Of a stretch of 64,000 nt of DNA, positions 49,062 through 49,476 are shown in pieces; position 1 is the stretch's first letter, and each line of letters starts with the position of its first letter. Source of the DNA: a virus (taxonomy: Duplodnaviria; Caudoviricetes); IMG/VR virus record IMGVR_UViG_3300048060_000061, positions 39,197 through 103,196 of that record, one strand, 5' to 3'. The notes under the pieces were generated by a model. It searched no databases and was not told the origin of the DNA. It saw only the letters and a program-made list of their open reading frames with translations. The translations under genes and the position numbers were made by a program.

Positions 49062-49176
49062 TGATATGATTACTTAAATCGCCGGCAGGTCCGCCGGTGA
49101 CTGGACAGGCGTGAACCCTAGAGCGTTGGCTTGGTTGTCTGTCAAACCTTCACAATTTAATATTTAAGCGTGTGGG
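49062..49176 (+). ncRNA. tracrRNA-like scaffold A with extended -10 promoter
   Basis: TG-A-TATGAT at 49062-49070; hairpin TCGCCGGC-AGGTCC-GCCGGTGA; GACAGGC/GTCTGTC stem; homologous to 49952-50047. Confidence 0.7.
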
Positions 49177-49197
49177 CGAATATTACACGTTAGTAGT

Positions 49198-49476
49198 GTT
49201 TTCCCCACAGGCGTGGGGGTGGACCGAACCGACATGTAATCAGCATGTCGGTTCGGGAAGTTTTCCCCACAGGCGTGGGGGTGGACCGCTGAGATGATGA
49301 GCGTTTCGGAAGCCGCGCGGAGTGTTTTCCCCACAGGCGTGGGGGTGGACCGCTTGTTGCAGTGGGTCCTTAGTCGCTTTGTTACGTTTTCCCCACAGGC
49401 GTGGGGGTGGACCGCTGAAGCGAGGGAAAAAGTGGCTGCGGAACAACGTTTTCCCCACAGGCGTGGGGGTGGACCG
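49198..49476 (+). CRISPR. CRISPR array 2: five identical 29-nt type I-E-like repeats and four spacers
   Basis: GTTTTCCCCACAGGCGTGGGGGTGGACCG at 49198, 49260, 49324, 49386 and 49448; spacers 33, 35, 33, 33 nt. Confidence 0.97.

Follow-up and report, generated by a model that had tools for sequence, protein, structure and literature searches.

The window analysed here is a stretch of 64,000 nucleotides (nt) corresponding to bases 39197–103196 of the 103,196-bp virus record IMGVR_UViG_3300048060_000061 (Duplodnaviria; Caudoviricetes), a phage genome with direct terminal repeats that is rated complete and has a base composition of ~43% G+C. It contains a guide locus in which a CRISPR array is headed by a structured RNA scaffold, which resembles one half of the guide RNA (omegaRNA) of TnpB nucleases, the half comparable to a tracrRNA (trans-activating CRISPR RNA). 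An open reading frame (ORF) separates the array from a second scaffold copy that runs directly into a single guide-position sequence, and a strong hairpin (50110–50145) lies 3′ of the latter. Positions are those of the window unless given as genome positions. The features are as follows:

49042–49070, plus strand: promoter-like site, TCGGCA-17-TATGAT with an extended −10 TG, from a promoter scan (9 of 12 consensus matches; a match to consensus only)
49076–49151, plus strand: scaffold core, tracr-like half of a TnpB omegaRNA, from consensus structure and covariation (covariance model R1, 89.8 bits)
49087–49092, plus strand: loop AGGUCC of hairpin 1, containing the proposed pseudoknot 5′ strand GGUCC, which pairs with GGACC at repeat positions 24–28
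49147–49197, plus strand: degenerate repeat-like hairpin CCTTCAC...GTGTGGG without the GGACC strand, followed by a linker that is conserved in relatives and ends with AGT at the leader–repeat junction
49198–49476, plus strand: CRISPR array of five identical 29-nt repeats of type I-E with four spacers
49503–49931, plus strand: ORF of 142 amino acids (aa) that separates the array from the second scaffold copy and matches no family
49951–50054, plus strand: second scaffold copy in the single-guide (omegaRNA) form, from alignment and fold (R1, 97.4 bits)
50055–50088, plus strand: guide-position sequence 3′ of the handle, resembling a tRNA T-arm plus acceptor 3′ strand

The repeats begin at 49198, 49260, 49324, 49386 and 49448 and enclose spacers of 33, 35, 33 and 33 nt (49227–49259, 49289–49323, 49353–49385 and 49415–49447). 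Judged by its length of 29 nt, its CCCCNC/GNGGGG hairpin, its ACCG end and the accompanying 32–35-nt spacers, the repeat can be classed as genuinely of type I-E. At least 120 loci were returned when species genomes were scanned with a repeat pattern; those listed belong mostly to Chloroflexota (Anaerolineae, Caldilineales), and many have tens of repeats. Arrays of Anaerolineae match the phage repeat at 27–28 of 29 positions, and four of the loci listed do so at 28. At one locus (L101, repeat 27/29 identical) the genes for Cse1, Cse2, Cas7, Cas5, Cas6e, Cas1 and Cas2 directly precede the array. The triplet before the first phage repeat, AGT, is like the AG(A/G/T) of bacterial arrays. Leader ends of Chloroflexota I-E arrays (L096, L100, L110, L112 and L126) read TGTTA(A/T)C(G/A)...AG(A/G), while the phage linker (49180–49197) ends in TATTACACG...AGT and the sister copies in TGTTACACG...AGT; the likeness is weak and could mark a common docking site for Cas1–Cas2. 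Alone among the spacers, the first (49227–49259) forms a near-perfect palindrome (AACCGACATG ... CATGTCGGTT); its source could be a target able to form a hairpin, for instance a terminator.

The scaffold is a 76-nt element (49076–49151) with two long helices. In hairpin 1, nucleotides 49079–49086 pair with 49093–49100 and expose the loop AGGTCC (49087–49092). Stem 2 (49104–49111 with 49136–49143) encloses AACC/GGTT and a small GC hairpin, with inner pairs between 49115–49117 and 49133–49135 and between 49123–49124 and 49129–49130. An earlier reading of this DNA from its letters alone (the original prediction) had described a structured leader with an extended −10, a hairpin with a GGTCC loop and a second stem. 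All three are found at the positions given there: the two helices covary, and the extended −10 (TG-A-TATGAT, 49062–49070) was also picked up by the promoter scan, within 49042–49070. As predicted from the consensus, transcription from this site would begin at ~49077, the 5′ end of the scaffold, and the relative L006 has a TTGACA/TATAAT pair at the equivalent place. A further stem proposed at that time, CCTTCAC (49147–49153) with GTGTGGG (49170–49176), is likewise at the stated place and can pair at six of seven positions, but the minimum-energy fold prefers a hairpin at 49167–49191. Both alternative 3′ hairpins, the repeat-like one and the downstream one (GCGUGU/ACACG), are ~88% pairable, with little covariation for either. 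The hairpin at 49167–49191, followed by GUUUU, scores as terminator-like and, if it acted as one, might release a scaffold-only RNA.

The structure of the scaffold core is far above chance. RNAalifold gave 21 consensus pairs for an alignment of 13 copies from seven contigs (five copies from the phage and eight from relatives), and every one of the 273 pair cells (273/273) holds a standard pair, with two-sided changes at 9 of the 21 pairs. Not one of 500 column shuffles matched these values for pairing and covariation, and pairing fell to 26–42% when the partners were slid. Stem 2 is exchanged almost wholesale among copies, e.g. GACAG/CTGTC versus CGCTGTC/GACAGCG, and that of the 49951 copy is fully swapped relative to that of the 49076 copy. 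No Rfam family matches the scaffold.

The scaffold occurs in two forms. The single-guide form has the order core, terminal hairpin, UGGACCG and guide, and the type I-E repeat aligns with the terminal hairpin plus UGGACCG; in the 49951 copy these parts are the core at 49951–50026, the terminal hairpin at 50022–50047 and the handle TGGACCG at 50048–50054, which equals the last seven bases of the repeat. The array-heading form consists of the core and the degenerate hairpin and diverges from the single-guide form exactly after GUGUGGG. Since it has no pseudoknot strand of its own, it looks like a tracr-like half that needs the repeat for completion. The scaffold's 3′ part is repeat-like rather than complementary to the repeat. 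In one relative (L091, 4240–4420) a tandem partial duplication has occurred within the scaffold, with stem 2 and the repeat-like hairpin present twice before the array.

The phage has the scaffold in five copies, of which four head arrays of 2–8 repeats and the fifth lies across the stop codon of a tnpB gene. The only R1 matches in the window are the 49076 and 49951 copies. The 3′ end of tnpB is the place where omegaRNA scaffolds are encoded, and the copy overlapping the stop codon thus occupies the omegaRNA position. The gene itself (genome 16059–17333, minus strand) lies outside the window, ~71 kb from the guide locus, and codes for a 424-aa protein that scores 232 bits with the NCBIfam model guided_TnpB (cut-off 100) and contains the Pfam domains HTH_OrfB_IS605 and OrfB_IS605 and a TNB domain. 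In 28 relatives its RuvC triad (D214/E319/D401) and the four cysteines of its zinc ribbon do not vary. Among solved structures ISDra2 TnpB is the closest (E 5e-39); LaTranC is matched over the RuvC/TNB part only (E 2e-23), and Cas12f structures match weakly (E about 1e-7). A second copy near the gene, upstream of tnpB, heads an 8-repeat array and is 96% identical to the 49076 copy, a detached paralogue of the tnpB-linked scaffold. No Y1 TnpA was found in the phage or among the called neighbours in relatives.

These results bear on the nature of the effector. As the original prediction had stated, no cognate protein is encoded next to the guide locus, which is flanked by a DNA methylase, two ORFs without a family match and pentapeptide-repeat proteins. 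The search of the rest of the contig that it had proposed led to the 424-aa TnpB with a scaffold at its 3′ end, and this common scaffold supports the idea of a TnpB/Cas12f-type guide scaffold whose effector is encoded elsewhere on the phage and would use it in trans. As to the label Cas12f-tracrRNA-like, omegaRNA of an ISDra2-like TnpB fits the RNA better. The 459-aa nuclease of the window was not borne out as the effector. The phage has just two TnpB-type genes, the one for the 424-aa protein and that for the 459-aa protein (14274–15653); the array of the latter has a different repeat 3′ half, and R1 finds no match there, in keeping with the earlier remark that the scaffold at 14231–14335 is dissimilar. 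The adjoining array (13980–14235, minus strand) has a 29-nt repeat whose first 16 nt are I-E-like (GGTTTCCCCACGGGCG) and whose 3′ half is remodelled (TTTGGAGGATCAG). Both phage nucleases therefore sit on I-E-derived repeats, with different guide-proximal ends.

The arrangement at the guide locus (scaffold, array, ORF, scaffold plus guide, hairpin) mirrors that of the main unit around tnpB, with the unrelated 142-aa ORF in the place held there by tnpB. In addition, the 27 nt before the 49951 scaffold (49924–49950) recur unchanged upstream of the scaffold heading the 8-repeat array (genome 17928–17954, locus L002), there as the last part of a small ORF of 58 aa, from which it follows that the duplicated unit begins ahead of the scaffold. 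One could read this as a decaying duplicate of the scaffold–array–tnpB unit which has lost its nuclease gene and is non-functional. The five repeats are identical, however, every scaffold pair is kept, and between the two local copies the stem swaps are fully compensated. The spacers are absent from other arrays and the locus has a promoter-like site of its own. We regard decay as improbable.

The link between the scaffold and TnpB is best seen in relatives. Loci were fetched from metagenomes through the TnpB protein alone, giving 10 loci on nine contigs with TnpBs 51–80% identical to that of the phage. Scaffold copies were present in all nine contigs (L006, L007, L088–L093 and L229), which answers the question, raised beforehand, whether homologues of this RNA occur together with type V/TnpB proteins. 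At 9 of the 10 loci a scaffold lies at the tnpB 3′ end, L091 having a partial copy there. Arrays of type I-E accompany it in eight of the nine contigs, most of which have a second scaffold copy upstream that heads the array; the L089 contig begins 233 bases before tnpB, so that only the end of the upstream array is visible. Counting the phage and these eight contigs, the arrays behind scaffolds comprise 2–10 repeats. Relatives with TnpBs 45–47% identical gave weak model matches at the expected place, and a metagenome scan with the TnpB alignment, serving as a negative control, gave 80 loci with TnpBs 30–41% identical, none with the scaffold. RNA and protein therefore travel and diverge together. 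Outside this lineage, exact-pattern scans of viral contigs with two scaffold patterns gave no match and a protein-based scan of viral contigs found no relatives. The isolate phage collection encodes no protein more than 37% identical to the 424-aa TnpB, and 401 Chloroflexota genomes contain only TnpBs of at most 50% identity (at most 44% over near-full-length matches). The covariance model found no match in the five bacterial genomes with the closest repeats, and among the 120 repeat-pattern loci listed none has the scaffold or a close TnpB. One 28-bit match among 151 Anaerolineae genomes was rejected as chance, with no TnpB nearby.

This distribution is difficult to reconcile with a phage mini-array read only by the host type I-E Cascade, the upstream element then being a conserved leader or regulatory RNA derived from a TnpB omegaRNA. 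Such a view would account for the true I-E repeat, the I-E spacer lengths, the I-E-like leader–repeat junction and a phage without a processing or adaptation gene. Yet the scaffold always accompanies TnpB and is found neither by bacterial I-E arrays (at least 120 loci, five genomes) nor in the 151 Anaerolineae genomes. It also occurs without an array, fused to the last 7–8 nt of the repeat and a guide, at tnpB 3′ ends and at 49951–50088, and the strong purifying selection on two helices would be unexpected for an I-E leader. Use by Cascade only is, in our estimation, quite improbable.

How the scaffold and the repeat might be joined is suggested by the structure of ISDra2 TnpB, where the nucleotides directly before the guide pair with the 5′ element, forming a guide–pseudoknot–stem unit that is conserved in Cas12 guides (PMC10097598). 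In the phage RNA the hairpin-1 loop GGUYC can pair with repeat positions 24–28, that is −6 to −2 before the spacer, which by comparison with that structure (PMC10097598) is where the ISDra2 pseudoknot lies. All five repeats of the 49198–49476 array pair with the loop by Watson–Crick pairs. In the family as a whole, loop and repeat end are fully pairable for 49 of 51 repeats, versus 0–1 at other offsets, and the two that do not pair are degenerate terminal repeats. The repeat-end variants GGACC, GAACC, GAGCC, GGGCC and GAACU all pair with GGUUC, whereas the loop GGUCC occurs only with GGACC; the sole loop change, U to C, is confined to where the partner is G.

Taken together, we consider it likely that the locus is a detached module, with a tracr-like scaffold and an array, which supplies guides in trans to the phage TnpB, with spacers probably loaded by the host I-E machinery. 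A promoter at 49042–49070 would drive a single transcript containing the tracr-like half of the omegaRNA followed by the array, each repeat of which would reproduce the cr-like half, i.e. the terminal hairpin and GGACC directly before the guide. The 424-aa TnpB, with its intact RuvC D-E-D triad and zinc ribbon, would bind the scaffold, the loop would pair with the repeat GGACC and rebuild the guide–pseudoknot–stem unit, and 16–20 nt 3′ of the repeat would guide DNA cleavage. TnpB could draw array guides from the long transcript in cis, or from processed RNA in trans. Profiles for Cas1 and Cas6e found no match in the complete phage genome, the other I-E genes not having been searched one by one. 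Since the repeats are of type I-E, the spacers measure 32–35 nt, the junction reads AGT and the phage is without adaptation genes, new spacers are probably inserted by host I-E Cas1–Cas2; trimming might be carried out by host Cas6e. Transcription, processing, binding in trans, cleavage, host-dependent adaptation and the targets are all inferred.

The spacers themselves speak to another possibility, namely that the scaffold–array units are RNA decoys (RNA anti-CRISPRs of the solitary-repeat type) which absorb host Cas6e or Cascade subunits and shield the phage from I-E immunity. The repeats are indeed near-identical to host-type I-E repeats, each genome has many copies, and a lone half-repeat makes up one unit. 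Across the family, however, spacers are of I-E length (32–35 nt), differ between arrays and relatives even behind near-identical scaffolds, and are unique except for one that occurs twice in the 8-repeat array. The arrays are polar with degenerate distal repeats, and this leader-proximal polarity fits active acquisition rather than a fixed decoy, which would moreover give no reason for the linkage of the scaffold to TnpB. We therefore think a decoy role very improbable. The 8-repeat array (genome 17370–17803, L002, minus strand) contains, besides the 33-nt spacer present twice, one 11-nt spacer and two degenerate distal repeats.

A bolder version of the preferred interpretation, in which guides are supplied in trans to TnpB, would have the cr-like half be a captured host I-E repeat, so that one array serves two machineries. 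Host Cas1–Cas2 would load the array, and Cas6e would cut after GUGUGGG, just where array-heading scaffolds diverge from the single-guide form. The 8-nt handle plus spacer would complete the TnpB scaffold via the pseudoknot, and the same CRISPR RNAs (crRNAs) could arm host Cascade. This is unlikely as it stands; if true, class 1 and class 2 parts would here be combined into a working hybrid.

Several observations weigh against the supply of guides in trans. Array transcription, its processing and a separate tracr-like RNA are predictions. A pseudoknot of 5 bp is a weak link for association in trans, and no long anti-repeat is evident in the scaffold. The original prediction had made covariation between the loop and the repeat end a check on its proposal, and the outcome is mixed: the two are pairable as described above and the loop C occurs only opposite G, but the covariation amounts to one event. 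The A/G variation of the repeat end is also found in I-E repeats of the ordinary kind. G+C is 54–68% at the bacterial loci whose repeats are most similar, versus ~43% for the phage. No protospacers, and with them no targets and no target-adjacent motif (TAM) or protospacer-adjacent motif (PAM), were found for the spacers of both arrays among isolate phages, for all 57 spacers among every fetched locus and the phage itself, or for three spacers of the 49198–49476 array among viral contigs.

ISDra2 TnpB (PDB 8H1J, 8EXA; PMC10097598), the nearest solved protein, likewise has a scaffold at the gene 3′ end followed by the guide; its pseudoknot, which joins the 5′ element to the nucleotides directly before the guide and has a terminal stem beside it, corresponds to the one proposed for the phage RNA. 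In contrast to ISDra2, there is no transposase and there are no element ends in the phage, extra scaffold copies lie away from the gene, and a type I-E repeat, multiplied into arrays, takes the place of the cr-like half or is the same as it. Cas12f likewise uses a guide in two parts, tracrRNA and crRNA, with pairing between repeat and scaffold at a pseudoknot, as is proposed for the phage RNA, and possibly over a second short stem. In the phage system, by contrast, a long anti-repeat is not evident, the repeat is a palindrome of the I-E type, and the protein is TnpB-like.

The closest known systems are two recently described groups. TranC systems are transposon–CRISPR intermediates (Jin et al., Cell 2025, doi 10.1016/j.cell.2025.09.004; as described in bioRxiv 10.64898/2026.03.27.714800, PMC13565253). 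As far as this description goes, they share with the phage a TnpB-sized effector without TnpA or cas1/cas2 and an omegaRNA functionally split into a tracr-like scaffold and array-borne crRNAs, a split that is predicted here; some members (CauTranC9) are also phage-encoded. According to the same description, TranC clades have 32–38-bp repeats of unknown type, whereas the phage repeats are 29-nt bona fide type I-E repeats; set against it, the phage also has several dispersed arrays, each with its own scaffold copy, and retains the whole single-guide omegaRNA at the 3′ end of the gene. In sequence, the 424-aa protein is nearer to ISDra2 TnpB than to LaTranC. The second group is the Cas12r-CRISPR of Thermus Lalka phages, a phage-encoded TnpB-derived nuclease without adaptation genes, with 29-bp repeats sharing elements with the host I-E repeat and 32–33-bp spacers, for which it is proposed that the host I-E module takes up the spacers and that tRNA-linked integrative elements are the targets (bioRxiv 10.64898/2026.04.20.719267). 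A tRNA-linked theme is met here as well, in the guide at 50055–50088 and in one spacer of the relative L088. Cas12r has 564 aa, uses the crRNA alone with no tracrRNA seen, and has one array downstream of its gene (bioRxiv 10.64898/2026.04.20.719267). Going by that description, it is set apart from the present system, with its 424-aa protein, a conserved, covarying 76-nt scaffold before every array and arrays far from the gene.

The lineage thus joins two already described principles, those of TranC and Cas12r, and is not a new principle. This joining is one of four points that distinguish it, the others being repeats near-identical to a bacterial I-E family, the complete omegaRNA at the gene and the spread of scaffold–array units over the genome. 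All stages are kept in one genome, from the single-guide omegaRNA at the gene through the same scaffold heading arrays to distant satellite arrays. The lineage also shows that the array half can come ready-made from a class 1 system rather than via duplication of the omegaRNA end. The compact, well-covarying scaffold and the 424-aa nuclease are suitable material for direct tests of trans-guide loading and of the dependence on host adaptation.

A few minor observations concern the surroundings of the second scaffold copy. The likeness of the sequence at 50055–50088 to a tRNA is not that of a tRNA gene, as ARAGORN and Rfam find none there, and the sequence has no other match in the phage or the fetched loci. 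The L088 spacer (850–884) looks like a tRNA 5′ half; the phage has five tRNA genes, none of which matches either this spacer or the guide-position sequence. Two adjacent genes for pentapeptide-repeat proteins (50189–51452, minus strand), located just downstream of the guide locus, have a 260-nt stretch in common with 98% identity.
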